DNA of 64,000 nt, taken from NCBI GenBank assembly GCA_964590345.1, contig CAZPVP010000001.1, positions 131,954 through 195,953 on the forward strand, in the 5' to 3' direction. Positions 3,330 to 53,734 of the stretch are shown here, piece after piece. The notes beneath the pieces were generated by a model. It was not told where the DNA came from and ran no database searches. It saw only the letters and a list, made by a program, of their open reading frames with translations. The stretch is from an uncultured Gammaproteobacteria bacterium. Its GTDB lineage: Bacteria > Patescibacteriota > Patescibacteriia > CAIXNZ01. The translations under genes were made by a program, and so were the position numbers. Each line of letters starts with the position of its first letter. The stretch's first letter is position 1.

Positions 3330-3345
3330 AATTTATACTTTTTAT

Positions 3346-15156: not shown

Positions 15157-15215
15157 GGTAAAAAAATAATTTTATAACTCTTTGATAATTAAACCAAATT
15201 GCTTATTTTTACGCC

Positions 15216-19801: not shown

Positions 19802-19807
19802 TATTAA

Positions 19808-20482: not shown

Positions 20483-20548
20483 AATTTAGTTTTTAAAGTT
20501 AAAAGTCTAAAGTTGAAAGTTAATTTTACTTTATAACTTTATAACTTT

Positions 20549-32034: not shown

Positions 32035-33099
32035 TTATTCTTCAGCTTCTGCTGGCTGCTCTGCTTCAGCTTGCTCTAATACCAAGAAACTGTTAATCAT
32101 CATCTTAAAAGTGGTTAAAAAATTCACTTTTGTTTTATTGCCAATATTATAGGTAATAATATAGATTGTTGATAAATCGTCTTTATCAGCTAAATAATAA
32201 GTTAACTTATCCGGACTAATCAAAGCGTCATAACCCTTTTTGGTTGTTTCTCTTTCCAGCTGTCTGACATCAGTTGAAGGTGATTGGTCTATATACCATT
32301 CAACTAAATCTAATCCGTTCGGATTATATCCCATTAAAACCTGAATGTATTCACCGGTAGCGGACTGAAAAATAATTTCTGTTAAGCTTTGATCCGTCGG
32401 CCGAGCCAGCCAATTCGCCAAATGCAAAATCTCATAATTAAAGATGGGATTTGTATATTTGTTGACCAAACCTGAAAGTTTCAGCAAAGAAGAACCAGCG
32501 GCTTTTGGATTATAGCCATTAATAATTTCCTGACCGTCAATAAAGCCATCAGCATCTGTATCTGGTTTTCTTTTTTCTGTTCCGTATAATTCTTCTTCCA
32601 CGTCAGTCAGGTCATCTTTATCTGAATCTAAACTGCTTGAATAAGTTATTGGCGAAGGTGGCTGTGGCGCATTAATATTAACATTTTCATTAATGTTCTG
32701 GTTAATATTTTCGTTGGCATTAATATTTTCATCGGCATTTACATTCTCGTTTTCATTAATATTTTCATTAACATTTACATTTTCGTTAATATTTTCGTTT
32801 TCATTTTCGTTTTCATTAATATTTGCTGGCGCTTGCTGATTAAGATTAGCTGGTTGTGAAGGCTGCATCGGCTGTTCTTGGTCCATTTGGCTAATTAAAT
32901 AAAAAGCGCCGAGCGCTACTCCGCCCAAAACTGCCAGTATTATGCCTGTAATTAAAATCCACCGTCCTATGCCTTTTTTCTTAACAGCCAAAAACTTATG
33001 AAATTTTTCCGGCATCACGCGAATTTCATAGGGCTCTACCTTTGGTTTGATTTCTTTTGCTGGCTCTTTTTTTTCTTTTTTGTTTTTACCAAAAAGCAT
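32035..33099 (-). CDS. Membrane-anchored protein with an Asn/Glu-rich hexapeptide-like repeat region and a TSP3-like Ca-binding motif (354 aa)
   Basis: One TM helix (WILITGIILAVLGGVALGAFYLI). Low-complexity stretch NENENENENINENVNVNENINENENVNADENINANENINQNINENVNINA, encoded by tandem hexanucleotides. DTDADGFIDGQEIINGYNP motif. Paralogous in architecture to 33228..33959. Confidence 0.65.
   Translation of the reverse strand: MLFGKNKKEKKEPAKEIKPKVEPYEIRVMPEKFHKFLAVKKKGIGRWILITGIILAVLGGVALGAFYLISQMDQEQPMQPSQPANLNQQAPANINENENENENINENVNVNENINENENVNADENINANENINQNINENVNINAPQPPSPITYSSSLDSDKDDLTDVEEELYGTEKRKPDTDADGFIDGQEIINGYNPKAAGSSLLKLSGLVNKYTNPIFNYEILHLANWLARPTDQSLTEIIFQSATGEYIQVLMGYNPNGLDLVEWYIDQSPSTDVRQLERETTKKGYDALISPDKLTYYLADKDDLSTIYIITYNIGNKTKVNFLTTFKMMINSFLVLEQAEAEQPAEAEE
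32671..32822. repeat. Imperfect tandem hexanucleotide repeat (ATTTTC/ATTAAT-type units) inside the coding sequence
   Basis: Direct reading of the sequence: about 25 consecutive 6-nt units encode the N-E/N-V/N-I dipeptide repeats. Coordinates approximate. Confidence 0.7.
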
Positions 33100-33227
33100 A
33101 AAATTTATTAAATTCTAAATTCTAATATCCAAATCCCAAACAATATCTAAATCCAAAATTCTAATGTTTAAAATAAGTATTTAGAATTTAAAATTTATTT
33201 AGGATTTAGAATTTCGTACTTAATGTT

Positions 33228-33959
33228 TTATTCAGTCGGTGGCACCAAAAGCCGGCCCGGACCATTTGGGTCATAACCATTGCGAACTTCTTCTCCGTCA
33301 TTAAAACCATCGCCATCAGTGTCCGGATCAAGCGGATTAGTCCCGTAAATTTCTACTTCTTCCTGATCAAAAAGCCCGTCATTATCAGTATCAGCATTTA
33401 ATGGATTGGTGCCCAAAGCTTCTTCTTCCTCATCAGTCAAACCGTCATTATCACTGTCTACAGCTGGCGCGGCATTAACATTGGCATTGGCATTAGCATT
33501 GGCATTGGCGTTGGCGTTAGCATTGGCATTGGCGTTAATATTGGCATTGGTGTTAACATTGGCATTGGCATTAGCATTGGCATTGGCATTAACATTGGCA
33601 TTGGGTGTTGGCTCTGGCTGCTGAACAAAACTCAAATATGCCAAGACTCCGCCGACAATTAATAAGATAACAATTACCACAATTAAAATAATTAAAATGA
33701 CCCTTTTACTCTTGCCTATTTTTGGCATTTGGGGCGGTTTGGTCGTGCCTTCACCAGCAGCCTTGCCAGCAGCTGGACTGCCAGTATCAATACCGGCAAA
33801 AATATCTTCGGGTTCGCCAGCTGGTTTGGCTGATTCTGGCCGAGGGCTTTGATCTTGCCCGCCAGCTGGTGCTGCTGAAGGGCTTGACCCTGATGGTTGA
33901 GGACCAGATGGTGTCTGCTCTCTTTCTCCCCCTGATCTTTGTTCTGGTTTGTCAAACAT
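33228..33959 (-). CDS. Membrane-anchored protein with an Asn-Ala dipeptide repeat and tandem TSP3-like Ca-binding repeats (243 aa)
   Basis: TM helix ([23 protein letters not shown]). [42 protein letters not shown] repeat. [58 protein letters not shown] fits the thrombospondin type-3 pattern. Confidence 0.7.
33478..33606. repeat. Near-perfect tandem hexanucleotide repeat (GCATTG/GCGTTG)n of about 21 units inside the coding sequence
   Basis: Direct reading: gcattggcattggcattagcattggcattggcgttggcgttagcattggc..., encoding (NA)n. This is a likely length-variable simple sequence repeat. Confidence 0.8.
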
Positions 33960-33996
33960 AAAATAATTTTGTTAATTTTTAAATAAATTTTTTATC

Positions 33997-34533
33997 TTAT
34001 TGGTTTAAAGCTTGAATGCATTCTTCGGTTTGACAAAAATTAATTTGAGTAACCTGACTAACACACCGCTCAATTAAATTATCTATATTTATCTCATAAC
34101 AAGGATCTGCGCTTTTTTCTTCTAAAGCTTTATTTTTATAAACAATAAAAACACACCTGTTTTTGTCTGTTTCATTTTCAATATTTTGGCAAACAGAGCT
34201 GTCTCCCAGATCAACGGCTATTTTTTCAAAACACAAATCGCGCGTACCTGCAGAATCTATCTCATTGCATAATTCAAAATCTTTTTTTTCTAAAGCTGTC
34301 TCATATTTATTAACTTGCTCTAGCCGCTTATTCCTAAGTTCTTCCTGGCTCAAATCTGCTGATTCTGCTGGTTCTGATTTAGGCTCAGACTTTGTTTCTA
34401 AAACTGTTTTTTTAGCTTCTTTTTCATCTTCAAATAATATAGGCACAAAAACAAATACAATAACTAAAATAATAGCTATTATCACGGCTATCAAAATTAA
34501 AATTAATTTGTTTTGGCTGAAAAAATTTGGCAT
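33997..34533 (-). CDS. Small membrane-anchored cysteine-rich protein (178 aa)
   Basis: N-terminal TM helix (LILILIAVIIAIILVIVFVFVPILF). Extracytoplasmic domain with 8 Cys. Confidence 0.55.
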   Translation of the reverse strand: MPNFFSQNKLILILIAVIIAIILVIVFVFVPILFEDEKEAKKTVLETKSEPKSEPAESADLSQEELRNKRLEQVNKYETALEKKDFELCNEIDSAGTRDLCFEKIAVDLGDSSVCQNIENETDKNRCVFIVYKNKALEEKSADPCYEINIDNLIERCVSQVTQINFCQTEECIQALNQ

Positions 34534-34550
34534 AAAATAAATTTTAGAAT

Positions 34551-36275
34551 TTAAGATGAAGGCGGAGTATAAGAAATAATTACTGGTTTGGTTAAATCAA
34601 GAATTTCTTGTCCTTCATAAACGCCATCTGGACCTGGTTCTTTTAAAAACCAACTATCTATACCATCAATAAATTTTGGTTCTATTATCATAGACCAGCT
34701 GGTATCTAAATTAGCTATCTCAAACATCCCTCCATCAGTACAACACTTGAACCATTCCCAATCAGCTGGCCAGTCTTTTTCATCATCAGCACTAAATTCA
34801 GAGCCATCGTCATCAGCTACTGCTACTACTGCCATATCCCAACCTGTCCTTGAAAAATCAAACTTAACACGACCACCACCCTCATCTGTTTTATCGTCTA
34901 AAATAATCGTACAATCATTATTTTCACCAATATTTGGCACATCATGAATAAAGCCCAAGCTCATCATATCATCACTACCATCAATATACGCAAAAATATT
35001 GCTGCGATCAGGATAAACCATATCATATTCTACTACATTACTTGAATTCGGACAGCTTGTTGTTGAATCATCACACTCACCCCCATAACAATAAAATCCA
35101 CTAGCACTTTTTTCAGTAACATATGGTCTAATTTTGGCTGAAAAATCAGTCTCTAGCTGAGTAACTTCTAGTTCTACACACGATCCTTTATAATCATAAC
35201 AGTCATCGCAAAGATCACCAATACCGTCCCCATCAACATCATCCTGGTTAGGATTAGAAATTCCTGGACAATTATCCAAAGAATCAGCAACTCCGTCTTC
35301 ATCAGTATCATCAGGAAATGGAAGCCGATAACCATTAAATTTACTGCCCTGCCAAGTCATCTCATCATTTGCGTTAATAACACAAGTATTGCCTTCAACA
35401 TGATTACCATCACTGCAATCAACCACTCTTTCAGTTATACTTACCGACTCATCCTGCGCGCAAAAGCCAATGTCGTCACAATAATCGCCAATACTAATAT
35501 CTTGGTCATTTTTACAGTCAGAATCATAATTATCACATTTCCTGTTATAAACTGTTTTTAATATTCCGCCAGTAACTGCTTGGCCATTGTCAATAGAACT
35601 TGTTATTACCTCAATAAACTTCTTTTCAATAACCTCTGGAGTGCGATCAACAACACACCAGGCATTTAATCTCATTCCTTTGCCAAAAACCGGGGTATCC
35701 ACTTCGCTGTTTAATAAATTTACTGACCGCTTATAATCCCGCATCTCATTGCCCGGAGGCACTACTTTTGGATCTCGCCAGCTGTCTGGCTCATTAAAAT
35801 CATTAATTGCCCAATAAATGCCTTGAGAAAAAAATGGCTGTCCATCAACAATTGATTCATCTAAGCTCGCTTTACAACTGCTATCATCACACTGATATTC
35901 TACTAATGTTAATAATTCTTCCACTGTGGGCAGACGAAACATGCCAGCTGGTTCTAAATCAGCACAAGCATCATAAGCTTCCTGCCAAGTATAGCCGGGC
36001 TCTAATTCTGCTGTTTCTAAATTTTCTGCGCTATCATAATAAGTAGGCAATTCATGACGCGCCCAGACCAAGCCAGTACATTCATCCTTCATGGTTAGGG
36101 CATTAACATTAACATCAACAAAACCAGGACAGTCTTTATCTTTAATCTCTTTAAGATATTCTTTTAACACCCAGTCTGTTTCAACCACTTCAGCCCAAAT
36201 GTTGCAGCCAACAAAGCCAAAACTAATAATAATTATTATTAAAATATAAATTTTAAACCAATGAAAATTTTTCAT
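34551..36275 (-). CDS. Secreted cysteine-rich protein with a DUF1566 (Lcl C-terminal-like) domain and thrombospondin type-3 repeats (574 aa)
   Basis: Signal peptide. ECTGLVWARHELPTYYDS...YTWQEAYDACADLEPAGMFRLPTVEELLTL matches DUF1566 (D..TGL.W....W..A...C..L...G..WRLPT..EL..L). DTDEDGVADSLDNCPGISNPNQDDVDGDGIGDLCDDC is a textbook TSP3 repeat. Confidence 0.7.
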   Translation of the reverse strand: MKNFHWFKIYILIIIIISFGFVGCNIWAEVVETDWVLKEYLKEIKDKDCPGFVDVNVNALTMKDECTGLVWARHELPTYYDSAENLETAELEPGYTWQEAYDACADLEPAGMFRLPTVEELLTLVEYQCDDSSCKASLDESIVDGQPFFSQGIYWAINDFNEPDSWRDPKVVPPGNEMRDYKRSVNLLNSEVDTPVFGKGMRLNAWCVVDRTPEVIEKKFIEVITSSIDNGQAVTGGILKTVYNRKCDNYDSDCKNDQDISIGDYCDDIGFCAQDESVSITERVVDCSDGNHVEGNTCVINANDEMTWQGSKFNGYRLPFPDDTDEDGVADSLDNCPGISNPNQDDVDGDGIGDLCDDCYDYKGSCVELEVTQLETDFSAKIRPYVTEKSASGFYCYGGECDDSTTSCPNSSNVVEYDMVYPDRSNIFAYIDGSDDMMSLGFIHDVPNIGENNDCTIILDDKTDEGGGRVKFDFSRTGWDMAVVAVADDDGSEFSADDEKDWPADWEWFKCCTDGGMFEIANLDTSWSMIIEPKFIDGIDSWFLKEPGPDGVYEGQEILDLTKPVIISYTPPSS

Positions 36276-36402
36276 AAAAAAATATTTAAATTTTTAATTT
36301 CTCTCAATACGGCGGACAAAACAACCTGCCAATCTATTAAAATAAAATTCTAAGAGTAAAATCCATTAGCCACTGCCGAATGCCCAATACCCAATGCCTA
36401 AT

Positions 36403-39400
36403 TTATTCTTCTTCTTTACAATTACAATAAGAATATTCTGAGTTAAAAGGCGCGTATTGGCCAGTGTCAGGATCATAACAATTTCTTTCGCGGTTAACAA
36501 ATTCGTAATCGCAGCCAATATTACCGCGTTTTTCGCAATAATTGCCCTGCGAATCAATATTCATTAAATATCTATTGCCAGCAAAATTAACGTCGTCTTT
36601 TTCTGTAATGTTTAAACCTACTGATTCACAAGCTAAGCCTTTTTCTGCCTGACAAATGTCTTCACAGCTTTTATCATACCCTGAATTAAAGTAACAATCA
36701 TCTTTCTTAAATGTACAGCTGATCTGATCACAATGCAAAAATCCTCCGTCATAACCAAATTCAGTGCATTGGCGGGCTATTTCTTGCTCTAATAAATTAC
36801 CTTCCATATCAACGTAAAACTCACAGCTTTCACCTTCTTCTATAACTCCATTGCCACAAGCTGTGTCTTTTAAACAACGAACTTTAAATTTAGCAGAAGA
36901 AGTCGGATATTCTTCAATGCTGCCGTATTTAAAATTAACAGCTAAAGCTTTGGTGCAGTTATCCTCATCATCTTTTGCCACGCAAGTATTTGACCAATAA
37001 AGGTAATTATCATCCGGGCAATCACTGCATAAATCTGCTTCATTTTCATCATAAGTGCAATTAGCCGGGCATAATCGTAATTTTTCTTTATCTGCATAAA
37101 GCAGGCCTTGCCCTGTCTGCCTGACCAAGCTGTATAATTCTGAAATCGTTGGCATTCTGGTCGCGCCAATACAAGCATTTTCAAGAGCGTTTTGATAATC
37201 CCATTGTGGACGAGAAATATTGTCTGTTGAAGACCAATTAATGCCCGTGCATAAATCTGCAAGATAATAGGTTTCCTGCTCGGTTATAATGGTTACCAAA
37301 TCAGGACATTCACTAATATTTACATCATAAGTAAGACAATCAGTATCAGTAGGATCACAAGCCTCAATCGGAGAAGGTGGGGGTAAAGTATATAATGGTT
37401 CTTTGGTTTTTTCTTTTGAATGATATTTTAAATAAGTTGATATTTCTGGCTGGCATCTGGTTGTTGTTAAATCACAATAATAACTCAAAATGCAGTCACT
37501 ATTGGAACTGCAGCCCATACTGCCTCTAGTGCCCAGGCAACGTCTTGGACCGGCATCACCAAAATTCCTAATCGTACAAGATAAATTAGTATCACAAGTT
37601 AAGCAATTGCTGTTTGTTTCTGGGTCACAAGAGGAAACTGAGGAAGAATCATGGTTGCACTCACCGCCCATTTTTATATGCTGGCAATCAAAAGCACATA
37701 AAGGATCGTCGCCCCAATCGCAAATTTCATAAAGACCTTCTGAATTAGGCCTTTGCACAATGCCATCACCGCAAAAAGTTGCTTGACAAACATCATTGCA
37801 ATTAAAGCTTTGGCAAGTATTATTAGCGCAAAAGCCACCAGCGCCGCAATCAGCATCAGTTGTGCAGCTAAAACCAACCCGGTCATCGCAGTTTTCACCA
37901 AAACCCTCCTGAATTATGCCATCACCGCAATAACCGCCGCGGTACTGGCAAATTTTACCCGTAACCGGATCATTGCCACATTTATACTGCGGCCGGACAC
38001 CATTAACTAAGCTGGTTGTTTCTTCTGGGAACGGCGGTGAATAATTTTTAATATCACATTGTTCGCCAAAATTCGATTGCACAATGCCATCACCGCACCA
38101 GCCGCCATAAGTTTGACAATCGCCTACATCTAACTCTGGTGAAAAAAGCGAAACAGAATAAATAATCGGGTTAATGTCCAAGTCCTGATCTTCATCCAAA
38201 TCAACATTGGAAAAATTATCAAGATAGTCTGGTAAATTTAAATCGGAAAACAGCAGCCAAAAATGATCGCCAACAAAATGCAAATAAATAGTATGCTGGC
38301 CAGCTGTCAAGCCGCCAACTGAAATACTGCCTGATTGAATTTGATTTTCATTGTTAGCTGGCACAACTATAGAGCCTATTTTATTTTCTTCATCATCATC
38401 ATCTAAATATACGCTAAAAATTAAACTGCGCAACAAATTGTTTCTTTGCCCGTCATCAGCAGCAATATCGCCATATTCCGGAATAGAAAGCCCGCCTTCA
38501 GGTGTTAAATTATATAAATTTTCAGTGCCCTCATTTTTCAAAAAGAATAAATAGTCAATTTGCTCATCAGTTAAATTATTTATCTTATCGCCAGAATTAG
38601 CTGTTTGTAATTTAAAGGTGTAATTACCAGCTTCTTCAATATTAAATTCATAACTGACCTTAAACCCGCCCAAGGAAGTTATTGCACTGTCGCTTAAACT
38701 GACACGTTCCGAATCAAGCGGAGGTGAGCAGGAAAAAAAATCTTCTTTATCATGATCATCGGCAAAATTAGTGCATTCAGATCCTGTCTTGTCTAAAATT
38801 TCCCCGGTTTCGCCAATGGCACTTACCCCTGAACACATATATTGCAAACTCTGGATGATTCCGCCCGGACCTCCTTGCTCTGGCCTTTTTAAAGGCGCTG
38901 GTGAAAAACCCAAATCACATTGTTCGCCATACAAAGCTTGCTGAATTTTATCACCGCAATAACCGCCGCAATCAATATCATCAACTTGTGGCGTATATGA
39001 TTGAGGCATATAACCAATCAAGCCAAATTCCTGCCATTCGCATTCCGGGCTGCAGCTTCCGCTGATATTTTCCTCATTATGCCAATCCTGCTCACCATAC
39101 TGCTGATCGCACCAGGATTCATCAGCAGCTAACGGTCGGTTCGGATCACAAGCTTCTCCACAACGCTCCTGCACAAAACCGTCGCCGCATGAACTGGTCC
39201 ATTTGCCTAAATAACAATAAACATTCTTATGTTCTGGAAATTCGCATTCTTCATCCTCTATTACGCCATTATTATTATTGTCAAAACAACCAGCCAAGCA
39301 AGTCCCCGGCTGATAGCATCTATTAGCAAAAAAGCATTGGCCCGGGGAACAGATTTCTTCTTCGGCATATTCCAAACGATAATTTAACAAATAACCATCG

Positions 39401-41217
39401 CCGCTTTTGCCGTCATCATCAAGGTCAAGCGCTGTATATTGATAAACATAAGCCCCGTCATACTCGCATTCAGTGCCGCCCAAATTAAATGAACCGTTTA
39501 ATCTAAGATTTTCATCACAATCCGAATGAGTGCCATAAGCAAAACTGGCATTAATCTCATCCCAGCAAGTCTCTTCATCATAACCGGGCGGACAAATGCT
39601 GCAATATTGGTCATCAACGCATTGCTGGTCAGCCGGGCAGCCAGTTAAAGGATTACCAGCTTCATCGCGTGAACAAATATTTTGGCAATCTGCCTGCTCA
39701 ATAGAATCCTGGCAGTCATAAGGCCCTCTATTTTCAGTTGACATAATATTTAAAGGATCAACTGGCAAAGCTGCTCCCAGCTGATTGCCCAAAGCAGCCT
39801 GCCATGACGGCCAAATGGAAATTGAATGTCCGCTAACAAAAGTGCCGGCCTCTAAAGTCGGATATTGGCCGTTTCTATTGTAATAAGTTCTAAGCAGGTC
39901 TTTTATATCATTCAAATCAGATAATCTAATCGTATCTCTACGCAATTGTTCTTTAATCTTTTCCACCCCTAAAACACCTACTTTTTCAATCAAATTAACA
40001 TTAAAATTCCAATTTTCTAACATTTGATTGAAAATATCAACTGTTGGTGTTGCTGCGGCTTGATTATAGGCTATAACATAAATATTAGTGAAAAAAAACT
40101 TTCGCAAACCGCATTCAGCTTCTTCAGCACAATCCGCATCCTCGCCGCACTCTTTGCCGTCATCAGGCCCGCTCAGACAAACATTTCTTTCAACCAAATT
40201 AGCTGCATTAATATAAATAGTTCGGTCATCCCTGACAGCGTCATAACCGTCAATTGTTATCCGTTCAACAGCTGGCGAAGGATTAACCACGTTTTCATTG
40301 TACCAAGTTAAGGGATCTTTGTTTTTTAAATTTTGATAAATCCTAACGCCAATAATATCATCAGCCGGCACAATACCGTCAATTGAGACTGAATGGACTA
40401 CCGGATTAGTATCTAAAATTTGATCATTATTTAAATCAGCATTAGTAAAATTATTTAAATATTCCGGCAGTGGATCCTGCCGATCGCTAAAATCCCACCA
40501 ATAATCGCTCAAAAAATGGAGATGAATTGTATGATTGCCAGGGCTTAAATTGTCAATTAAAATTTCTCCTTCTTTAACCTCGCTGGGATCTGTATTTTTT
40601 ACTATAATAAAACCTTTTTTGTTTTCAGCTTCTTCGCCGTCAACATAAACACTAAAAACAAAACTTCTAACCAAATTATAAATTTGCATTTCTGATGTGC
40701 CCAGCGCAGTCAAGTCATCTTTTGAAATTCCTTCACCAATATAAGCTAAAATCGCATCAAGATCTTCTACTTTCTTATCATCAAGAATAAAATCAATTTG
40801 CTGGACTGTTAAATTTTCAAAATTATCCTGATCATTGGATACTCTGATTTTAAAAGCATAATCATCCTGCTCTGTAACATTAAAATTATAACGCAATTTA
40901 GCTGGCTTTGAAGCCAAAACCCCTGCGCCGTCCACCCATTCTTTAATTTCACCTTCATCATCAAAAGGCGGCAAGTCAGGGCAAGCAAGATAACCTTGCT
41001 CATCATCATAATAAAGCTTGTAACCTTCGCATTCTGTGCCTCTTTTTTGCAAAGGCGTGCCTTCTTTTTCATAAGAGCTAATCGGAAAAAAATATTCTTT
41101 TAACAAAACATCTTCACCCAAAACGTCTACTTGGCCAAAAGCAAAAAAGGGCAGAATTAAAAAGATTACAAAAGCGATAATGAATAATGAATATTTATTT
41201 TTATTTATCTTTGTCAT
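36403..41217 (-). CDS. Giant secreted protein (1604 aa) with Myxococcus-type cysteine-rich repeats and a C-terminal DUF1566-like region
   Basis: Signal peptide (LFIIAFVIFLILPFFAFGQ). Repeated CGDG[IV]xQ..GE.CD units: GWCGDGIVQSNFGEQCD, GGYCGDGIIQEGFGENCDD, TFCGDGIVQRPNSEGLYEICD, SCGDGFVQERCGEACD, ACGNGVIEEGESCE. Near the C-terminus, CTGINWSST...WDYQNALENACIGATRMPTISELYSLV is DUF1566-like. Two internally duplicated ~250-aa modules (...GNHTIHLHF.../...GQHTIYLHF...). Confidence 0.75.
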   Translation of the reverse strand: MTKINKNKYSLFIIAFVIFLILPFFAFGQVDVLGEDVLLKEYFFPISSYEKEGTPLQKRGTECEGYKLYYDDEQGYLACPDLPPFDDEGEIKEWVDGAGVLASKPAKLRYNFNVTEQDDYAFKIRVSNDQDNFENLTVQQIDFILDDKKVEDLDAILAYIGEGISKDDLTALGTSEMQIYNLVRSFVFSVYVDGEEAENKKGFIIVKNTDPSEVKEGEILIDNLSPGNHTIHLHFLSDYWWDFSDRQDPLPEYLNNFTNADLNNDQILDTNPVVHSVSIDGIVPADDIIGVRIYQNLKNKDPLTWYNENVVNPSPAVERITIDGYDAVRDDRTIYINAANLVERNVCLSGPDDGKECGEDADCAEEAECGLRKFFFTNIYVIAYNQAAATPTVDIFNQMLENWNFNVNLIEKVGVLGVEKIKEQLRRDTIRLSDLNDIKDLLRTYYNRNGQYPTLEAGTFVSGHSISIWPSWQAALGNQLGAALPVDPLNIMSTENRGPYDCQDSIEQADCQNICSRDEAGNPLTGCPADQQCVDDQYCSICPPGYDEETCWDEINASFAYGTHSDCDENLRLNGSFNLGGTECEYDGAYVYQYTALDLDDDGKSGDGYLLNYRLEYAEEEICSPGQCFFANRCYQPGTCLAGCFDNNNNGVIEDEECEFPEHKNVYCYLGKWTSSCGDGFVQERCGEACDPNRPLAADESWCDQQYGEQDWHNEENISGSCSPECEWQEFGLIGYMPQSYTPQVDDIDCGGYCGDKIQQALYGEQCDLGFSPAPLKRPEQGGPGGIIQSLQYMCSGVSAIGETGEILDKTGSECTNFADDHDKEDFFSCSPPLDSERVSLSDSAITSLGGFKVSYEFNIEEAGNYTFKLQTANSGDKINNLTDEQIDYLFFLKNEGTENLYNLTPEGGLSIPEYGDIAADDGQRNNLLRSLIFSVYLDDDDEENKIGSIVVPANNENQIQSGSISVGGLTAGQHTIYLHFVGDHFWLLFSDLNLPDYLDNFSNVDLDEDQDLDINPIIYSVSLFSPELDVGDCQTYGGWCGDGIVQSNFGEQCDIKNYSPPFPEETTSLVNGVRPQYKCGNDPVTGKICQYRGGYCGDGIIQEGFGENCDDRVGFSCTTDADCGAGGFCANNTCQSFNCNDVCQATFCGDGIVQRPNSEGLYEICDWGDDPLCAFDCQHIKMGGECNHDSSSVSSCDPETNSNCLTCDTNLSCTIRNFGDAGPRRCLGTRGSMGCSSNSDCILSYYCDLTTTRCQPEISTYLKYHSKEKTKEPLYTLPPPSPIEACDPTDTDCLTYDVNISECPDLVTIITEQETYYLADLCTGINWSSTDNISRPQWDYQNALENACIGATRMPTISELYSLVRQTGQGLLYADKEKLRLCPANCTYDENEADLCSDCPDDNYLYWSNTCVAKDDEDNCTKALAVNFKYGSIEEYPTSSAKFKVRCLKDTACGNGVIEEGESCEFYVDMEGNLLEQEIARQCTEFGYDGGFLHCDQISCTFKKDDCYFNSGYDKSCEDICQAEKGLACESVGLNITEKDDVNFAGNRYLMNIDSQGNYCEKRGNIGCDYEFVNRERNCYDPDTGQYAPFNSEYSYCNCKEEE

Positions 41218-41255: not shown

Positions 41256-44200
41256 TTAAAATCTAATTGGTATTTCTATGCCATTCTTATATTGCCTTAA
41301 ATCATCAAAATTTGTATAACCGCCAAAATTATTATCATATATATATATTATACCAGCTACTGGCGTACATTGACACTCCTCGCCTGGCAAATCACCGCAA
41401 ATAGAGCCTTCTAAATCCTTACACGTGCCATAACCATTACAATCATTATCATCTGAACATTGCCTGCCAGTCATAAACTTTGCGGTATCAAATATTTCTT
41501 CTCTCATTGTAGTGCGATCTTCACCAGTCGCGCTATCAACAATTTGCCATTCTTTTTCAGGGTCATCTCTGATCGCCCAAACAACAGCATTAGCATTGTT
41601 TGAATCATCCACGCTATAACTATAACTAGCCTCTGGCCAAGGGTTATTACTGCCGCCAATTTTAAATCTAATTTCATTGCCTTCAATTAAAAAGGCCTGT
41701 GAATGCAAAACTCCAGTTGGCTTCGTATCTTGAATATCAGTAGTTTCTTCCCAGTAATTGCCCCTATATCTTTCATATGTGCCTATCCACCAATTGCCTT
41801 GAATTTGAGAAGAAATCCCGTCCCGTTGCGAAGTAATATCAGTATAAACTGGCTGAGAATCAAAAGCAGTGCCTGTTGCCTCAACCCAATTAAGCAAATT
41901 GCCATACTCAAAATCAGTATTCGTTAAATTACTCAAATTAGCTACATCTGGAAATAACCAACGGGCAGCCGGCAAATCACCAGCCGGGCCTGGCGGTCCG
42001 GCATCACGGCAATAATAAGTTTGGAAATTATAAGCATTGATTAGGCTGGAAATCGGGAATTTTTCTTGAATTGAAGGCCAAGGATTTTCGCAAAGCAAAA
42101 TATAAACATCAAAATTTTCCTGCGCAGGCGGCTCAAAGCTGCCTTTAGCCTGTGCTTCAATCGCTAACTGGGCAAAAGCCTCTTCTATTGGCTTTGCTGT
42201 GACAAAAGTTATGCCTGTATCATTTTGAACTTTATAATCATCTTCTGAACTGTCACCGCCGGTTAATTCTGGCTTATCATTATATATTTCTATTGCCCGT
42301 TGCGGATCTGTATCATCGGTTTTTGACCATTGATAATTAGCTTTTAAAGAAAAACCTTTTTTTGATTTGCCAATCGCATCGTATTCATGCTGATTGCCTT
42401 CTGTAGCAGGATCCTGGTCAAAATCTAAATCTAAGGCACAATCATCCCTGCCAGCACACATAAACAAATCATCATCTCTAAATTCAGCATTTCTATTATC
42501 CCAAATTGTGAAAGGCTTGCTATAAACAGAAACATCAATCCATTCAACATTGCAGATTCCGCTTTGAGGATCATCAGCTTCACCCAAAGTTTTGAAACCA
42601 AAAATATAATCTTCAGAATCAGCTAATGGATCTGGCCAGGGCGAATTGCTGTTATCTAATTGGCCGCCGGCTAAACTTTTTATACCTATTTCACCGCCTA
42701 TAATAGTTACCTGATAATATTGTTCAGAGTCTAAAAAATTATCAGTAAACAAAGAAACTATTGTTTTATCATAAGCATTTAAAGTTTCCAATTCATATTC
42801 TTCACTGCTAAATTCAGTGCATTCTTGAGCCAAGGCTTGCCTGTCATAACCGACCAATCTCTTGAAAATATTTTTAAAATATTGGACTGTTTTATAAACC
42901 AAACCTTTATTTTGCTGCCGGGCAAAAGTTGAATCGCTGCAAGAAGCAATCCTGATATGATTTTCCAAAGTGCTTTCATCAATTAAATCATCAAAATAAA
43001 TATCAACAATACCATTAGTGCAAAATTCCTCTTCGCCATGATTCGGCATTGTAGCCTGAACTTTAAATTGCGGCAGCTCTAATAAACTACAAGCAGAAGT
43101 ATCAAATTCACATTGTTCATTATGGCCAGGCGGATAACAACTTAATTCCCCTGGCTCAAGCTCCAAAGTTTCGCAAGTTTGATTATTTAATCCAACAACT
43201 GTACATTGCCACTCTTCACCGCAATCACAATCTTCCATATAATTTAATTCCGGATAATTACTGATTATATTGTTGCCGCATAAATCTAAAATCGAGCGGC
43301 AATCATTGCCAATGCAAAACATTAAATTGCAATCATCTGCGCAGTCAGCATAACATTGATCTATTTCTTCATCAGGTCTTTCAGAAAACAATTTTTGACA
43401 AATTTCTTCTAATTCGGAATCTTCTATTTCCGGCATTGTGCCGTCATCACACATTTCACCTAAACCACGGTCAATGATTTTGTCACCGCAAGCGCCAAAA
43501 CTAACATCAAAACGCAAAGCACTGCTTAAAATATCCTGGCCATTAATATCTTTAGAAACCTGTACTTGATTCCTGCCTGTACCAAAAGTCGTACCATAAC
43601 CAGCAGCATCTTCTGGCACCTTAAAACAAATATTTTCATTTGCCCATCCGTCATCAGCCGGACAAGCATTAAATTCTTGCTCATTAATATAATCAGTTAT
43701 TTTAAAGCTATAATCATCAGCTGATAAATCAGTATCATACAAGCCATTTTCATTAACATCAATAAAAAGTTCGCCAATCCCTTCCTTTTCATCATAATCA
43801 TATTGATTATTGCCTTCTGTTCCGTCCGGGTTTGAACTGCTGTCAAAATCATCTGAAGCAGGATCAGGATTTATTTCCGGATCATAGCCGTCTTCTTGCT
43901 CGCTTGGTAAGCCGTCAAGGCCGTAATCATACCAGGGCTCCCGTAATTCTGACAGTTCTGAATTTGGCCCAAATTTTATATAATCATTTGCTTGCAAATC
44001 AGCGAAATTCTCACCAATGGCTCTAACTGTTATGCCTTGATTGCCCAAATCAGGTGTTAAACGGCAAAGATTAGGAACTGAGACATCATCCACATCATAA
44101 TTAGCCGGATCCAAATGTTCAGTCGTATCTTCATATGGCGCGCCAAAAGCTGTAATTAACTTAATCGGCCCGTCAATTGCATCATTTAAATCATACCCTT

Positions 44201-47200
44201 CTGGCGGACAATCGCCTTCAGGGCAGTCCATATTTGGCTCAATATCCTGATTCGGCACTTCAACAATAACCTCGTCATAATCATCAGGATTACAGCGCCA
44301 GGTCTCACCGCAGTCTGGATTTTTTTCGCCCACATTTAAAGCTTCCTTAATATAACCAGTTGCTTGTTTGCCTGCCAAAACTTGTATTTCAACATCAGTC
44401 AATGCCCGGTCATAAATCCGCAATTCATCTATCTGGCCATAAAACCATGACTCCGGGGATTTTACTCCATCAGGCTTGCGTGCTTCTGAACCTACGCCAA
44501 TAAAACCAAAGCTTTGTGATCTTTCTTGGCCTGCGCCCAAACTTTTATCACCAGGGGTAGTTACTGCAGCTACTTGTTCGCCATCTACATAAATTCTTTT
44601 ATTGGGTGATGCATTAGTATTAAACCAGCCGCAAATATAATGCCAGTTTCCATCAGCATAATCGCTTTCTGTTGACAAATCACGTGTTTGATCTAAACTA
44701 TCTGTTGTATCCCAGCCAACATTTGCAGCTCCTGTAGGAACGGTGTCTTTCAAGGCCAATCGCCAAACTTCGCTCCTGTCAAAAGAAGCTATTATTTGAG
44801 CTTGTTGGCTGGAAGATTTCACCCGGGCGCAAACCGTAGTTTCTGGAAGCTCACTCTGGCCATAACTTATTGGCAAGGCAACATAATCGCCAGTGCCGTT
44901 TAAATTTAAAATACCTTGATCAATAGAAGCATCACCTTTTAATTCCCCGTGATATTCATTAGCTGAAGCATCGTTAGCTGTGTCATCATCAAATGAATAA
45001 TAAGCCTTATAATCCTGCAAGGAAGTCAAGTCTTCCATTTGTTCAGCTGTCTTGCCCCAGAAATAAACCTGGCCCGGATCACAGCCAAAATAACAGCCAT
45101 TCAATGCCACCCAAGTGCCGACAGCACCGCTATTTGGCGTAAATTCCATAATATATGGAGTACAACGGCCATTAATGCAACTGCTTGTGCCTTCACCGCA
45201 GGCATTACAATCCAAGTCAGTTTTGCACTGGTCTGCTGCGCCAGTTAAAGGGCAGGCTACATATTTAGAAATTCTATTTTTTTCTGCATCACGAACAAGC
45301 GATAATTCACCAGTCCAAAAGACTCTGTTTTCCCAGTCATAACCGCCGATTGCTTCATTTTCTTCGTTTGGTGAAAGATTGTTTTTGGACCAAGAAGTAA
45401 CATATTCTTCTGAATGCCAGTTAAGGGCGACCACGCCTATTGATGAATTATTATAATAATTAGAAATATAAATAATATTTTCATCAACTGCAATGCCCAA
45501 TGGGCCGGCTACGCCATTTGGCAAATCATCAACAGTAAAGCTTTTTACCAAGCGCCAATTATTTTTAGGATCATAAATTTTAACTTTATAGGTTTTTCCC
45601 CACCAAAATTTAATCTGTGCAACATTAAAGACATACTGGCCATTTGAATCAATTAATCCGCCATTTATCAGTGAGCCATTGCTTATATTGCGAGCTGCAT
45701 TAATTATCCCGCCCACAAAATTCAAAAACGGTGATGGCAATGAGGCTGATTGCTGTAAATAAAATTCATTAGTTTCATCATCAAAAATTATTTCCGGCAC
45801 CCACCAATTACCGCCTTCGGCATAAGTAAGCCCCGGATAAAATTTGCCGTCAGAATGATAAGTTATTGAAGGCAAATATATTACTTGCTCGCTGCTGTCA
45901 GGCTGGATCCTGTCACGCCAGACATATTCATTATATATCCTGCCCAATTCAGTGCCATTATAACCAGTGCCAATTTTATAAATAATATTACGGGGGTTAA
46001 CGCCAGAAATATTTGAATCATAAGATAGCCGCCAATTCCACCAAGTCGTATCTGTTCTGGCATATAAATATGTTCCGTCACTGGTTGAATTATAAGTATT
46101 AACATAAGATGCGATCTTGCCTGCCTGATCATGGGGCCTTATCGGGAACCCCGACAAGACTGCTTCTTTACGGCCGATTTTCCCGCTGCCAGTAACTTCA
46201 CAACCGCCAAAAACAGTAAAATTAACTGGATTACTAGGCACATCTTCATAAACAATGTCGTATTGGCCGCTTGGGCACCATGTACCGATACTAAAGCCAG
46301 CGCAAGCCCGGCCTGTTTCAATTCTTTTAGTCACTACCACTTCGCCGGTTTCAGCTCCGGCCGGCACATTGCCTGTAATAGTCTTATTATCCCAATAAGA
46401 AGTTGTGGCTATCGCCCTATCCGTAAAAATCAAATTGCTGTTTCCTTTTTCAACTTCAAACCTGTCGCCCTGAACAACAACTACTTCATCCGGCTCGCCA
46501 AATGTCGGCGTTATCTGACAAATTCCAGCGCCCAGCGGATCATCATTAACTTCATAATTGACTCGATTGCTTTCCAAGCCAGTCCCAGTTATTAAATAAA
46601 GATCGCCTGGCTCAGCGCCTTCTGGCACTTCCACAATGATTTGGGTATTAGTCCAATAATTATCACAAGGCGGCGGCGGAAACAAGGCTTCTTTATCATT
46701 ATAAAAGAAAACCTTACTTTCCCCTTTCACATACTCGCCAAAATTATAACCAGAAATAGTCACCCAAGTGCCGATTGGCCCGTTATCAGGTGAAATTTTC
46801 TCTATTACCGGCGGCAAATAAAAAGGCAAGGTATTGCTTTCAAGAGAATCTACTTGTTCAGTATTTTGTTCAGTATTGCCGGTTTCAAAATTTTCTACTG
46901 AATAAGTGCCTGAATCATATTCAAAATTGGAATTTATATCAGCATACTCGTCGCAGCCTTCGGTCTGGCCTTCTGCACAGGGAGTAAAAAAACCATCACC
47001 TGTTAAATCATTATATGGCTCTGAATAAGGATCAATGGATATTGAAACGTCTATTTCTGGATAACCAATATCACTAAACGGATTAATTGCTTCCACCAAT
47101 TTGTTGGTCCAGCCCCTAATATTCTCGTCTCCCAAAAAATCAGCGTCAAAAATAGTATAACTGCCTACGCCATATTCTTTGCCCTCATAAGTCGTTTTAT

Positions 47201-50200
47201 TGGAATCGCCGAAATTATCGCCATCCAAAGCAACTTCTGTCCCTTCCAAACCAAAATCAGGCTGCAAATCGCATAAGAAAGGATAAACATTTTCACTATA
47301 AATAAAAGTCCGATCACTTTTAGCTTTACCAAAAAGTGTTTGGACATAAACATATGAACCGTCTTTAGCGCCCAAGCGGCTCTGGATTTCTCCCTCGCTT
47401 AATGCCCGGTTATAAACAACTATTTCATCCAAAGCACCGGTAAATTCATTATCACAGCCGCCTAAGCATGAATCGCCATAAATATCCTGTTTATAATATC
47501 TGCCTGGTTCATCATATTCAGCTTGCTGGCCATTAAGGTAAATTTTCACTTTTTCACCGTCATAAACTCCGGCAAAATAATTCCATTGGTCAATATTTAT
47601 GCCATTTGAAGTTTCGGCATAAACAGATGAACCAGTTTTTTCTCCCTCATCAGCCACAAAAACACTAAAGAGCAAACTATCATCAACTATTCTCACTGAC
47701 AAATTATCGCCTTGCTCAAAGATCACATTGTCTTGAGTATCACTAACTTTAAACCAGCCCTCAATAGTTATGCCTTTATAAAAACGCAAAGCCGGATTAT
47801 CAGCAATGTTTATATGATTATCATTATTAAAACTAATTGCTTTGCCATAGCGCCCTTCGTCAATTCTAAAGCTCTTGCTTGGATCAGCAATTGAAACTCC
47901 CTGAAAATTATTAACTGATGAATCAATAATTTGTTCTCCTGTACCTTCAAAATTAAGCAATAAAGTTTGACCTGATTGCAAGCCATAATTATTACGGACT
48001 TCTCCTGCGCCTAAAACACGATCATAAATAGCAAATCCGTCCATTGTTCCTTTAAAATAATCTTTAATACCTTGGCTGTTTTTTGCACCAATTAAAACAT
48101 CAGTTTTGTTAATAACATCAGCTAAAAATCCTTGCTGACTTAAATTATTATTAGCTAAATTCCCTTCACTGGCTAAATATTGCAATTTAACGCCATTAAT
48201 ATAAATATTGTATTTTTCACCGTCAAAAGTATAGACAAGATGATTCCAGTTATTCCATTTGACTGGCGCGCCAATTGTTTTATTAAATTGACCATTAATA
48301 ACCAAATTCAAATCAGTGCCATTTTCAGTGCCACTTTCCAAATCTAACGAAAATAAATCATCTGAACCGTCAGAAGCGCTAAACAAAGTTTGTTGGCCTG
48401 CTTGCTCCGGCTTAAACCATAATTCAAGACTGCCCGTTTCCAAATCTAAAGTATTTGGCAATTTAACATAATCACTAACTCCATTAAACAACATAGCCTG
48501 GCCAAACTGATCACTAACTCTTTGAGGTGAGCCCATTATTTCGCCTTCATAATTGCCCAACTGATCTTCTAAAATAACTCCGCCAGTATCTTCAAAACTA
48601 TAAAATAAAATCATACCATTTCTATCCACTAATTCCGGCAAATTATAAGTGGCTTGTTGTTCTGCCTCCACTGGTTTGGCTTTGGGCGCTAAGACCTGAA
48701 TTATTTCATCTGTCCAAGGATCACCGCAGTCAACCAATTCAGCCGGCACTTCTTCAAAGGTAACCCCACCAGCCAAAGGCTCATCACCAAAATTCTTGCC
48801 GTAAATTGTCACATAAGCATTAATATCAGGATGAATCAGGCCATTGTTAGGGTAAATTCTATCAATTTCCGGCAGATTCAAATCAATTACCAATTCATTG
48901 TCTTCATCCTTTTCATTATCCGGTGAATCAGGAAAAACTTCAGCGCCAATATAAGTTAATCCCTGATCAATCGGTGTCGCTATTTGTTTATAATCAATCT
49001 TATTATTGCCCTCGCTTATTATATTGCCGGATTCATCACGAATACGCGGCCGAATATCTTGCTCTGATATAGTGGCAATGCCATAATCTTCCAATGTTTC
49101 TGAAGCTTCTTCTCTGGTACCATCACTATAAACTTTATACCACGTCCAGTCATAAGCATTACCATTCAAAATATTGCAATTTTCAGCCAAGGCAAAGGCA
49201 TTATATTCCTGATCTTCAGTAATTAATTCTATTAATGCTTCTTGGGGATTAACCACGACGTTATCAATTTCACAAGCTTCAGCTGAATTTCTGATTCTAA
49301 AATGCCAAGAATAATCTCCGCCTTCAATGCCGTCAAAATCACCATCCAGCCAATAATTACCCAGCTCTAACGCCGATTTAATGCCATCACGACCACTTTT
49401 TAAGGTCACTTTATACCAAGTATTAGGCTTTAAATAATTATCCGGATGTTCTGTCCTTGGCTCAAAAACAAAGCCAGTATCTTCATTAATTGTATCTATT
49501 GCTAAAGGTTCAAGCGGCCTTGGCGAACAAAGATTTTCCTCAAAAGCACCATCATCATTACATTTCTGAACAATAATAGTATTTTTATTTAAAGAAGCTA
49601 CATCCATCTTTTGGGTAAAACGGGCTGAAATCCAAATATTGGCACAATTATCAACTGAATTTTTCCAAGGTGTCGGGCTTTGTGTGTTCTCTTCACAAGG
49701 CAGCTCTTCAATAACTTGGGGTGGTTCTACGTCAATATCTAAACCTGTTGTAAAAGACCATTTATAAGTGCACATTGGCGCCACTTCCATTTCGCAGTCT
49801 TCTGGCAAACGGCAAACGCCATCTAATTCACAGCAAATTAAGCCCGTATTTTCTGTATCACAAATACTTGGATCATCACGGCAATCAATTACTTCAAATT
49901 GCATTTGATTGCTTACCAAACCATTTTGATCAATTAATTCAACTGGACCTGTTACTGCTCCTTCAGGAACAGTCATTGGCAATCCGCTCCTTACTTGGCC
50001 AGAACCAACTTGATTTTCAGTCCAATAATTTGATAAATCATCAGCAACTTCTTTGTCATCCCAAAAAAATACTTTGCTTTGCTCTGAATCATAATCATAA
50101 CTATCAAAATTTTCGCCGTAAAGCGTAATATCAGTAGTGCCAATTGGACCCTGATCAGGCTCAAGCAAACAAATGCCTGGCCTCAAAGGGCAAGTCTCGG

Positions 50201-52571: not shown

Positions 52572-52577
52572 GCTATT

Positions 52578-53726
52578 TTATTGATTTGGTTTAAAATTAA
52601 TAGTTACAGTCGCTGGAAATTCCTTGGCCAAAAGAATGCCCTCTTTCAAATCTGCTGAGAAAAAATACCATTCTGCATCTAAAAGTGGGCTTTTGAAACC
52701 CCACTCATGAGGCTCAAATTTATTTACTGTTAAATCAAAAATCAATTCTTCAGATCCATCACCAATATAAATAACTTCGCCGTCAGTACAGCAAGGCGCC
52801 CAGCCATTATTATAAACTAATTTATTATTGCACTCGCCATACCTGTCGCCTCTAATATTAGTCTTATCACATGGATAATTTGGCAAAGATGCCAATATGC
52901 CATCGTCTAATATTGCAAATTTAAAATAATCCCTGGTCTTTGTTAATGAACCATTAAATCCGCCTGATCCCTTGTTAATCTCGCTATGAATATTAATTAA
53001 ATAATATTTTGGCTGATTAGGATTGCTTTGATCTTTATAAATAAAGCTTATTGTGCGATTAGCCGCTATCATCCTGTTAAAAAAACCGCCATATTCTTCA
53101 AGAGAAATAATATTAGTGCTTGCAGTGAACTCAGTGCCATAACTGTAAAAATCTTTAATTGATTTATTTAAACTAAAAATACCCAAATCAACGCTCTGCC
53201 CATTATAATCCATTGAAAAACCAGTATCAGTCAATAAACCAATAGAATCATCATCATCTTCTTCCTCGCCATTTTCTTGCTCGCCATCACCATAATATTG
53301 CTGATTAATATTTTCATTTACGATTCGGCCGTTCTCTGCCATTTCCACACCTGTTGCTTCCATTATTTTTTTCAAAATATAATTAGTTATACCAAAAGCA
53401 ACCAAAATGACAACTAAACCAGTACCAGCAGAAATTAATATTTTCTTAGCTTTTTCTAATTTTTCTGAATCATTCCTGCCAATTAGATATAAAAATCCGC
53501 CATAAATAAACAAAGCCACTGCCACTATTCCTAATAAACCTAAAGAAACTTTAATTATATTTGCCATCGTCAGCCTAAAATCTCCAGCGCCTAAACCTGT
53601 TTCTGTGCCATATTCTAAGCCAACTTCTATCATGCCTGCATTTGCCTGACTAACTAATAAAAATAAGCTTAAAAGAACAATTATTCCTAACAAATATATA
53701 ACTTTTTTTGCAAAAATTTTATTCAT
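52578..53726 (-). CDS. T4SS pilin-like N-terminal module fused to a ~260-aa extracellular domain (382 aa)
   Basis: The N-terminus GMIEVGLEYGTETGLGAGDFRLTMANIIKVSLGLLGIVAVALFIYGGFLYLIGRNDSEKLEKAKKILISAGTGLVVILVAFGITNYIL is colinear with the N-termini of the two neighbouring genes. The C-terminal domain is unrelated. Confidence 0.65.
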   Translation of the reverse strand: MNKIFAKKVIYLLGIIVLLSLFLLVSQANAGMIEVGLEYGTETGLGAGDFRLTMANIIKVSLGLLGIVAVALFIYGGFLYLIGRNDSEKLEKAKKILISAGTGLVVILVAFGITNYILKKIMEATGVEMAENGRIVNENINQQYYGDGEQENGEEEDDDDSIGLLTDTGFSMDYNGQSVDLGIFSLNKSIKDFYSYGTEFTASTNIISLEEYGGFFNRMIAANRTISFIYKDQSNPNQPKYYLINIHSEINKGSGGFNGSLTKTRDYFKFAILDDGILASLPNYPCDKTNIRGDRYGECNNKLVYNNGWAPCCTDGEVIYIGDGSEELIFDLTVNKFEPHEWGFKSPLLDAEWYFFSADLKEGILLAKEFPATVTINFKPNQ

Positions 53727-53734
53727 AAAATTGT

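Follow-up and report, generated by a model that had tools for sequence, protein, structure and literature searches.

The five consecutive genes at positions 32035-41217 of the 64,000-nucleotide stretch analysed here (the window; contig CAZPVP010000001.1, placed by GTDB in the Patescibacteriota) make up the downstream half of a single cluster of surface-protein genes, all read in one direction, and follow three genes for proteins with an N-terminal, VirB2-like pilin domain of type IV secretion systems (T4SS). In 35 of the 55 related loci that contain the core module of the largest block protein, p1604, this module lies in the same open reading frame (ORF) as giant-body and/or T4SS_pilin sequence. 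Since the core is found inside the ORF of a pilin-fused giant in so many relatives, p1604 is best read as the detached distal piece of such a giant. By the Rosetta-stone argument, the shared ORF gives the strongest support to the view that p1604 works together with the VirB2-like fusion protein. We propose, with moderate confidence, that the cluster encodes a Ca2+-dependent surface attachment apparatus coupled to the VirB2-like pilin fusions.

Fusion and fission of the p1604 core

The genes concerned, by position in the window, are:

32035..33099, minus strand: p354, predicted bitopic anchor with two thrombospondin type 3 (TSP3)-type Ca loops and a predicted PsbP/Mog1-fold domain
33228..33959, minus strand: p243, predicted bitopic anchor with three TSP3_bac repeats
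33997..34533, minus strand: p178, predicted N-terminal transmembrane (TM) anchor with an 8-Cys ectodomain
34551..36275, minus strand: p574, predicted secreted protein with DUF1566 and a thrombospondin type-3 repeat
36403..41217, minus strand: p1604, predicted Sec-secreted multidomain protein with 88 Cys, without membrane anchor
41256..55825, minus strand: three T4SS_pilin (VirB2-like, Pfam PF18895) N-terminal fusion genes
15216..16022, minus strand: p268, TSP3 anchor of a second locus (Locus A), directly preceding the gene of a giant of 2647 amino acids (aa)

Relatives were collected by scanning an alignment of 12 p354-family sequences against one genome per GTDB species. At least 211 relatives were recovered, and the best 80 loci were examined by tblastn with the window proteins. 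Seven of the 35 ORFs that join the p1604 module to a giant are complete within their locus and comprise pilin domain, body and module. Pfam places T4SS_pilin above its cut-off at the N-terminus of the fused giants L023, L017 and L043, together with TIG, Big_5 or Laminin_G_3, and the module lies near their C-termini at 27-30% identity (E 1e-15 to 1e-28, tblastn). In 20 loci, as in the window, a separate gene with its own signal peptide starts with the module. Four T4SS_pilin proteins (P0081, P0083, P0084 and P0086) were also recovered independently as p1604 homologues. The initial annotation had proposed a link between the block and the pilin fusions; with the p1604 core physically fused to T4SS_pilin giants in many relatives, the link is stronger than proposed. 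The fusions supply its strongest support, beyond synteny.

The three partner proteins in the window have 696, 382 and 3771 aa and match PF18895 with 42.1, 37.2 and 30.6 bits, respectively (cut-off 26.6). Their N-terminal domains are 52-67% identical to one another, and the 3771-aa giant also carries Laminin_G_3, TIG and Big_5. One p1604-type CGDKIIDRGLGEMCD repeat occurs in this giant at residue 3028 (43444-43488), and is the only sequence feature common to p1604 and the giant in this genome. The 696-aa protein (53735-55825) has a weak, sub-cut-off Dickkopf_N-like Cys-rich match at residues 546-588 (E 0.0026), which may be another Cys-rich module.

Layout and gene order across relatives

Five consecutive minus-strand ORFs of 354, 243, 178, 574 and 1604 aa fill positions 32035-41217 exactly, with intergenic gaps of 12-128 bp. 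The initial annotation of five consecutive exported or anchored proteins was borne out, with two signal peptides and three single-TM anchors predicted. Taken as a whole, it stands in its ORFs, in export or anchoring and in several domains, and is unsupported in its Myxococcus label and wrong in its placement of the block 'upstream' of the pilin-fusion genes. That placement is true only in plus-strand coordinates: the minus strand holds nearly all genes of the window (G+C ∼35%), and, with all genes concerned on that strand, the block is transcribed after the pilin-fusion genes at 41256-55825, that is, downstream of them. In the direction of transcription, YqeY, HisRS and S26 signal peptidase lie 5' of the pilin-fusion genes, and YbeY, DAGK, FtsA, FtsZ, NrdR and NrdD lie 3' of the block. 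A promoter and terminator scan was uninformative, with terminator-like sites at chance counts, not in excess, and promoter-like sites abundant in AT-rich DNA. The common strand, the short gaps and the chance-level terminator counts are indirect evidence only that the block is co-transcribed with the pilin-fusion genes.

In contigs with homologues of p574, p1604 and p354, the order runs from a T4SS_pilin giant of 3300-4100 aa through the p1604 homologue, an Lcl_C protein, a small anchor, a TSP3 anchor and the p354 homologue to YbeY, DAGK, FtsA and FtsZ. The succession of giant, p1604-type, Lcl_C, small-anchor and p354-like genes is present in L002, L004-L007 and L010. The more distant loci L008, L011 and L012 are without the Lcl_C and p178-type genes and keep giant, TSP3 anchor, p354-like gene and YbeY; in L011 and L012, giant and anchors are not set apart by a further large gene. 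In the survey loci, all matches lie on one strand in the order HisRS, T4SS_pilin, giant body, p1604 module, TSP3, p354-like, YbeY, DAGK, FtsA and FtsZ. Upstream sequence extends to 8 kb or more in 61 loci, each from a different species representative, and 60 of these have the giant, the pilin domain or the module upstream of the p354 homologue. The co-occurrence with T4SS pilin fusions that the initial annotation expected is thus clear, and the opposite outcome that it named, genes scattered and not co-conserved, is clearly not what is seen. In 64 evaluable loci, the p354 homologue is immediately preceded by a p243-like ORF, which is shorter than 400 aa in 62, has a TM segment in 63 and carries at least two DxDxDG motifs in 59.

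The block is not the one homogeneous unit that it was first taken to be. A p574-type sequence was found in 1 of the best 80 loci, a p1604-D1-type sequence (D1 being an N-terminal domain of p1604) likewise in 1/80, and a p178-type sequence in none of them by tblastn. Judged by their sequence distribution, p243 and p354 make up a universal core and the p1604 core module, split from the giant in the window, is common, with p574, p178 and the extra p1604 domains as accessories that only the window's own clade has. Conservation of the cluster spans a group of Patescibacteria at class level, for which the titles of the metagenome-assembled genomes (MAGs) name Uhr-, Buchanan-, Kerfeld-, Komeili-, Falkow- and Magasanikbacteria. 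The names attached to homologues put the window's organism in the Patescibacteria. Many GTDB representative MAGs with the locus (L015-L017, L022-L024 and ∼25 others) are titled 'uncultured Gammaproteobacteria bacterium'; given the typically patescibacterial locus that they carry, these are probably mislabelled records.

It is unlikely that the block consists of unrelated surface proteins that are mere neighbours, with their order conserved by the slowly rearranging backbone of small Candidate Phyla Radiation (CPR) genomes. Such a backbone would account for the housekeeping genes that keep their order on both sides in the same loci, for L010, which is collinear with the window even for Locus A and the intervening metabolic genes, and for p574, p178 and the p1604 accessory domains, which come and go between lineages. 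It sits poorly with a gene order that persists at p354-homologue identities of only 25-35%, with the p1604 core fused to the pilin giant in 35/55 loci, and with p178-type and TSP3 domains fused in relatives. In L001, moreover, a sub-block of giant, Lcl_C, TSP3 and Cys anchor has moved as a unit into an unrelated context, and in five loci the giant or module is kept upstream of the p354 homologue where the adjacent YbeY/DAGK have been lost.

The same five loci bear on a second alternative, very unlikely in our estimation, in which p243, p354 and perhaps p178 would act in the envelope or in cell division and belong with YbeY-DAGK-FtsA-FtsZ, not with adhesion, their cytoplasmic motifs contacting the divisome and their ectodomains the wall. 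Proximity speaks for it: in the 68 loci with at least 3.5 kb of downstream sequence, YbeY/DAGK lie within 1.5 kb of the p354 homologue in 60 and FtsA/FtsZ within 3.5 kb in 59. So do the conserved cytoplasmic N-terminal motifs of p243 (EPEDIFAGI) and p354 (VMPxKF), and the fact that some envelope-biogenesis proteins, DcrB and LpqN among them, have PsbP/DcrB-type domains. Against this, the giant or module stays upstream in the five loci without adjacent YbeY/DAGK, the TSP3 anchor of Locus A is paired with a giant far from ftsAZ, and Pfam, NCBIfam and fold searches gave no similarity to FtsQ, FtsL, DivIC or other divisome proteins. Both alternatives are disfavoured because of the fusion evidence and the five loci lacking YbeY.

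The five block proteins

Hydrophobicity and comparison of N-termini assign p1604 an N-terminal signal peptide. Its whole architecture is kept in 21 homologues, and conservation peaks at residues 441-560. The parts of p1604 are, from its N-terminus:

40378..41040, minus strand: domain D1, residues ∼60-280, first copy of an internal duplication
39538..40365, minus strand: core module, residues ∼285-560, with a predicted Mog1/PsbP-like subdomain, a long helix and an invariant-Cys region
38146..38784, minus strand: domain D2, residues ∼812-1024, second copy of the internal duplication
37693..38097, minus strand: motif cluster of three CGDG[IV]xQ..GExCD half-repeats, residues 1041, 1097 and 1149
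36871..37260, minus strand: divergent DUF1566/Lcl_C-like domain, residues 1320-1449, a sub-cut-off hidden Markov model (HMM) match

A HMMER scan with p1604 of 1.84 billion cluster representatives returned 1027 matches at E≤1e-3, most of which span only residues ∼285-495. The matched proteins have 197-3493 aa; the module stands just behind their signal peptide or, in giants, close to the C-terminus. It is a widespread secreted module, for which Pfam has no model. The AlphaFold2 (AF2) model of residues 281-800 has a pLDDT of ∼85-90 across ∼300 residues and no Foldseek match in the Protein Data Bank (PDB); on the model, the core is predicted to contain a Mog1/PsbP-like subdomain. A type IV pilin or pseudopilin domain at residues 420-500 was considered and rejected, as neither a Pfam pilin match nor a structural match was found. 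The p1604 sequence has no match among PDB sequences, and its Cys regions have no Pfam match even at E≤10.

D1 and D2 are 36% identical (E 5e-43) when compared fragment against fragment, a duplication missed by BLAST self-comparison, and their profile has no PDB match and no Pfam match. We discarded an identity as CBM_4_9 (PF02018), which has no HMM match on p1604 or on any of 16 D1/D2 fragments; one of the 16 fragments matches CBM_6 (E 0.0046), and the precomputed CBM_4_9 matches of p1604 homologues are weak or faint only.

The motif CG[DN][GK][IVF]x[QE] occurs six times in p1604, at residues 677, 754, 1041, 1097, 1149 and 1454, against a mean of 0.003 in shuffled sequences, and none of its Cys, Gly, Asp and Glu positions varies in the 21 homologues. 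The CGDG..GExCD repeats reported from the first reading are therefore real and non-random; their Myxococcus-type label (TIGR02232, PF13948) is unsupported. Membership of TIGR02232/DUF4215 was judged by 20.8 bits, or 27 bits for PF13948, over a full repeat of ∼38-47 aa of the form CGNG..E.CDDGN..C..C. On p1604, TIGR02232 reaches 13.7 bits (cut-off 20.8; E 0.042) over profile positions 4-19 of 38 only, and PF13948 (DUF4215) gave no match on the whole protein, nor on isolated fragments at E≤10. The fused giant of L017 carries a p1604-type module followed by four genuine DUF4215 repeats (131 bits), to which the p1604 repeats align weakly (E 0.002-0.07). The p1604 motif is best regarded as one half of a DUF4215-type repeat in divergent form. 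The DUF1566 domain noted in p1604 is recognisable at 27.4 bits (E 4.5e-6; profile positions 4-116 of 117), under the Lcl_C cut-off of 34.9, and precomputed PF07603 matches are present on several p1604 homologues.

Two short elements of p1604 were also observed. Its C-terminus (36403-36440) has a family-conserved '..SEYSYCNCxE' tail, with no TM segment and no known sorting signal. A [VL]LKEY[LF] element is found near the start of the mature chain of both p1604 (residues 38-43, 41089-41106) and p574 (residues 36-41, 36153-36170), and is absent from 77/77 p354-family proteins. Because the element lies ∼20 residues ahead of the p1604-type module in the fused giants L023, L017, L067 and L043, it looks like the first element of the module, behind which D1 would have been inserted in p1604.

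The N-terminal signal peptide of p574 is conserved in its family as ..AQ|VEETP. A lipoprotein identity ('FVGC', Cys24) was rejected, the Cys being absent from 11/11 homologue N-termini inspected. p574 was first described as a secreted protein with DUF1566 and TSP3, and both domains hold. Lcl_C (PF07603) scores 40.6 bits (cut-off 34.9) at residues 61-159 (35799-36095). TSP_3 (PF02412), judged by at least 25 bits together with the pattern DxDxDGxxDxxDNCPxxxNxxQxDxDxDGxGDxCD, scores 25.0 bits, exactly equal to the 25-bit cut-off. In a phmmer search of the PDB, the T3 repeat at residues 322-364 (35184-35312) aligns to COMP (3fby) and TSP-2 (1yo8), with an i-E of 7.4e-5 for the best single stretch. 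The N-terminal 318 aa are the only part common to most homologues, and the C-terminal domain has no Pfam match even at E≤10.

The other three proteins each have one hydrophobic segment (residues 43-72 in p354, 80-114 in p243 and 3-38 in p178). Because this segment sits behind a charged or Pro-rich N-terminus, p354, p243 and p178 are suggested to be N-in/C-out membrane anchors. In p243, a Pro/Ser-rich N-terminus, predicted to be cytoplasmic, is followed by the TM segment, an (NA)n linker and three TSP3_bac (PF18884) repeats at residues 168-235 (33255-33458). The repeats score 83.6 bits, against a gathering cut-off of 25 bits for repeated DxDxDGLxDxxE units. An EPEDIF(A/G)GI motif in its cytoplasmic N-terminus (residues ∼49-57, 33789-33815) is unique within the window; the corresponding regular expression matches at 41/64 related loci.

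p354 has a cytoplasmic motif, the TM segment, an N-rich linker, two TSP3-type loops and a C-terminal domain, the last two parts being placed as follows:

32506-32628, minus strand: two TSP3-type Ca loops of p354, residues 158-198, from the family alignment
32065-32487, minus strand: predicted PsbP/Mog1-fold domain of p354, residues ∼205-345, from AF2 and Foldseek

The initial annotation counted p354 with p243 as a TSP3 anchor. Alone, p354 has no significant Pfam match (none at E≤0.1), yet 27/41 members of its family match TSP3_bac (best E 3.9e-11). D158/D160/D162/E168/E169 and D180/D182/D184/D188/E191 are invariant in the alignment of 41 homologues, and because these ligand positions are invariant in the p354 family, Ca2+ binding by the TSP3 loops is plausible. 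The AF2 model has pLDDT >90 for residues 150-345, and Foldseek matches the C-terminal domain to CyanoP (2lnj) at E 8e-6, and also to 2xb3, BT_1490 and Tsi3. By this model, the domain is assigned a PsbP/Mog1 fold. Just ahead of the TM helix, on the cytoplasmic side, lies an EI(H/R)VMPxKF motif (residues ∼25-33, 33001-33027), in which M29, P30 and F33 are invariant or nearly so across the family. In both p243 and p354, the DNA that encodes the Asn-rich stalk linker is tandemly repeated, as (GGCATT)x22 at 33471-33604 and in 30/36-nt units at 32670-32824, so that slippage could alter stalk length.

p178 has 8 Cys, judged by eye to form roughly four C-x10-12-C units, and has no Pfam or NCBIfam family match, even at Pfam E≤10. 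It is 34% identical to a 173-aa protein of L001, and L001, L005 and L011 each have a fusion of a p178-like Cys repeat with TSP3_bac repeats.

The small anchors could instead belong to the T4SS or pilus itself, in its structure or its assembly, as functional analogues of VirB8/VirB10-type components missing in CPR, and help to export or polymerise the VirB2-like fusions rather than tether lectins; we hold this, too, to be very unlikely. They always lie behind T4SS_pilin genes, VirB8 homologues are rarely detectable in Patescibacteria (PMC12102498), and p243 and p178 have weak NCBIfam matches to VirB10 and IcmG/DotF over TM segment and linker (E 0.0015-0.067). These matches reach 18 bits against cut-offs of 200-400, however, and fall on low-complexity TM/linker segments. 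The recognisable T4SS genes (PrgI and TraC/VirB4-like) are in the other locus, ∼30 kb off, and p354 has no fold similarity to VirB8 or VirB10.

A proposed attachment apparatus and its setting

In the attachment apparatus that we favour, the first genes of the cluster encode giant extracellular lectin/Ig arrays borne on VirB2-like (T4SS_pilin) membrane domains. In the window, the p1604 core has become a separate gene and gained the duplicated domain, the DUF4215-like half-repeats and the DUF1566 (C-type-lectin-like) domain. Together with the two anchorless proteins, p1604 and p574, the pilin fusion would form the outward, glycan-binding part of a host- or substrate-attachment structure, and p243, p354 and p178 its Ca2+-dependent, membrane-proximal base on flexible low-complexity stalks. 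The PsbP/Mog1-type fold often serves protein binding. A specific tether model, in which the TSP3/PsbP anchors hold or organise the anchorless secreted proteins by physical interaction, is possible and we advance it tentatively. We hold about equally doubtful the broader idea of an undescribed attachment organelle common to the class-level group, with a pilin-borne giant lectin/Ig fibre, a 'Mog1-like + Cys-knot' tip and a TSP3/PsbP base. In such an organelle, a VirB2-like T4SS pilin domain would carry or nucleate the giant fibre, and the tip module would be encoded in cis (fused) or in trans (p1604), with the cluster beside ftsAZ.

Several points weigh against the attachment apparatus. The flanking housekeeping genes (S26 peptidase, HisRS and YqeY on one side; YbeY, DAGK, FtsA and FtsZ on the other) are conserved in the same order, so synteny may partly reflect a stable genome backbone. 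Synteny by itself overstates functional coupling, because collinearity within the clade extends to the entire region with its housekeeping genes. The window's own 3771-aa giant has no BLAST similarity to p1604, and the two have a single CGDK..GEMCD motif in common. Some domain calls on window proteins are below cut-off (Lcl_C and TIGR02232 on p1604; TSP3_bac on p354 and p268), and the p1604 core, D1/D2, the p574 C-terminal domain and the p178 repeat are without a functionally characterised relative. The adhesion or scaffold function of the block is what we infer from its domain families, and the tether role of the TSP3/PsbP anchors is purely conjectural.

Among known systems, the patescibacterial T4SS (MPF-FATA-like; Ca. 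Southlakia epibionticum) is similar in its tandem PF18895 T4SS_pilin genes, of which the window has three, and a monoderm-type T4SS (PrgI, TraC-like) is found elsewhere in the window. Epibiotic growth of cultured Saccharibacteria requires the T4SS, the pilins of that system and several adhesins (PMC10633639), and a host-dependent CPR lifestyle that needs all three is a further point in common. A CPR-wide survey reports VirB2-like pilin arrays and no PrgB-type adhesin (PMC12102498). Unlike these systems, the window has pilin domains fused to extracellular arrays of up to 3.6 kaa, and its cluster adjoins ftsAZ and not virB4. It also adds conserved lectin-like proteins and TSP3/PsbP anchors, which the available portions of PMC12102498 and PMC10633639 do not describe.

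The DUF1566 domain of Legionella pneumophila Lcl is a C-type-lectin-like, glycosaminoglycan-binding adhesin head (PMC11162425), and is represented in p574 above and in p1604 below the cut-off. Both window proteins lack the collagen-like stalk and the N-terminal amphipathic helix of Lcl and are Cys-rich, whereas the Lcl C-terminal domain has no disulfides; Lcl is a type II secretion system (T2SS) substrate of a proteobacterium, whereas the window's organism is a monoderm CPR bacterium. The 'calcium wire' of thrombospondin/COMP resembles the window proteins in its DxDxDGxxDxxD Ca-binding loops, and p574 residues 322-364 align with its Cys pattern. The window proteins differ from thrombospondin and TSP3_bac systems in having 2-3 repeats per protein, on bitopic membrane stalks and not on a matrix glycoprotein or an outer-membrane lipoprotein. 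Partial NCBIfam matches of p243 and p574 to Myxococcus MtsC/MtsD and CglD score 32-40 bits against 350-800; because they cover repeats only and are far below the cut-offs, p243 and p574 are not orthologues of these proteins. With PsbP/Mog1/DcrB/DUF1795 proteins (CyanoP, BT_1490, Tsi3, SciW, LpqN), sequence identity is only 7-13%, and the window has no photosystem, type VI secretion system (T6SS) or lipoprotein context, so function is not transferable. Cellulosome anchoring, in which a Ca2+-dependent dockerin on secreted subunits binds a scaffold on the cell, offers an analogy only: in the window, putatively carbohydrate-binding, secreted multidomain proteins without an anchor are encoded next to membrane-tethered ones in which a pair of EF-hand-like Ca2+ loops is all that can be recognised. 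No cohesin or dockerin family membership was found in the window proteins, whose Ca2+ loops are on the anchors and not on the secreted proteins.

The open-access literature searched gave no description of the block, or of thrombospondin repeats in Patescibacteria. The recognisable domains of the block are individually ordinary surface-protein parts; what appears undescribed in that literature is the cassette found across the clade, which combines a pilin-fused giant and a detachable tip module with a TSP3 anchor and a TSP3+PsbP anchor, and also the unannotated module family. Outside Saccharibacteria, host recognition and attachment by uncultured CPR are largely unknown, and the locus is a concrete, clade-conserved candidate gene set for host attachment. 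The pattern of fusion and fission is sequence-level evidence that a secreted giant and a VirB2-like fusion act together. The p1604 core defines a module of more than 1000 clusters at 50% identity, without a Pfam model, that could become a family. If the organelle were real, it would supply the adhesin component that the CPR T4SS is missing, with a conjugative pilin repurposed as an adhesin anchor. The clade has no cultured member, hence the attachment hypothesis is not yet easy to test.

Elsewhere in the window, a small gene for a 23S_rRNA_IVP/bAvd-like four-helix protein lies amid housekeeping genes at 21680-22024, with a counterpart at L008:16587-16958. No reverse transcriptase turned up among the window ORFs scanned against Pfam; therefore a diversity-generating retroelement is not evident. 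Locus A (741-16022, minus strand) has the order RrnaAD, p268, the 2647-aa giant (CBM_4_9), a 930-aa polytopic protein, two unknown proteins, PrgI and a TraC/VirB4-like fragment. Its PrgI is VirB3-like, and the 930-aa protein is VirB6-like by eye, with no Pfam match. TSP3 motifs had been reported in p268 as a link between the two loci: p268 does have two DxDxDG motifs and a TM segment, and scores 19.4 bits for TSP3_bac, short of the 25-bit cut-off. It is 46% identical to p243 over 57 aa. The pairing of a TSP3 anchor with a giant thus recurs, in Locus A as a second instance in the window and in L010, where 18399-20975 repeats the Locus A layout with RrnaAD, a 283-aa TSP3 protein and a 2848-aa giant.

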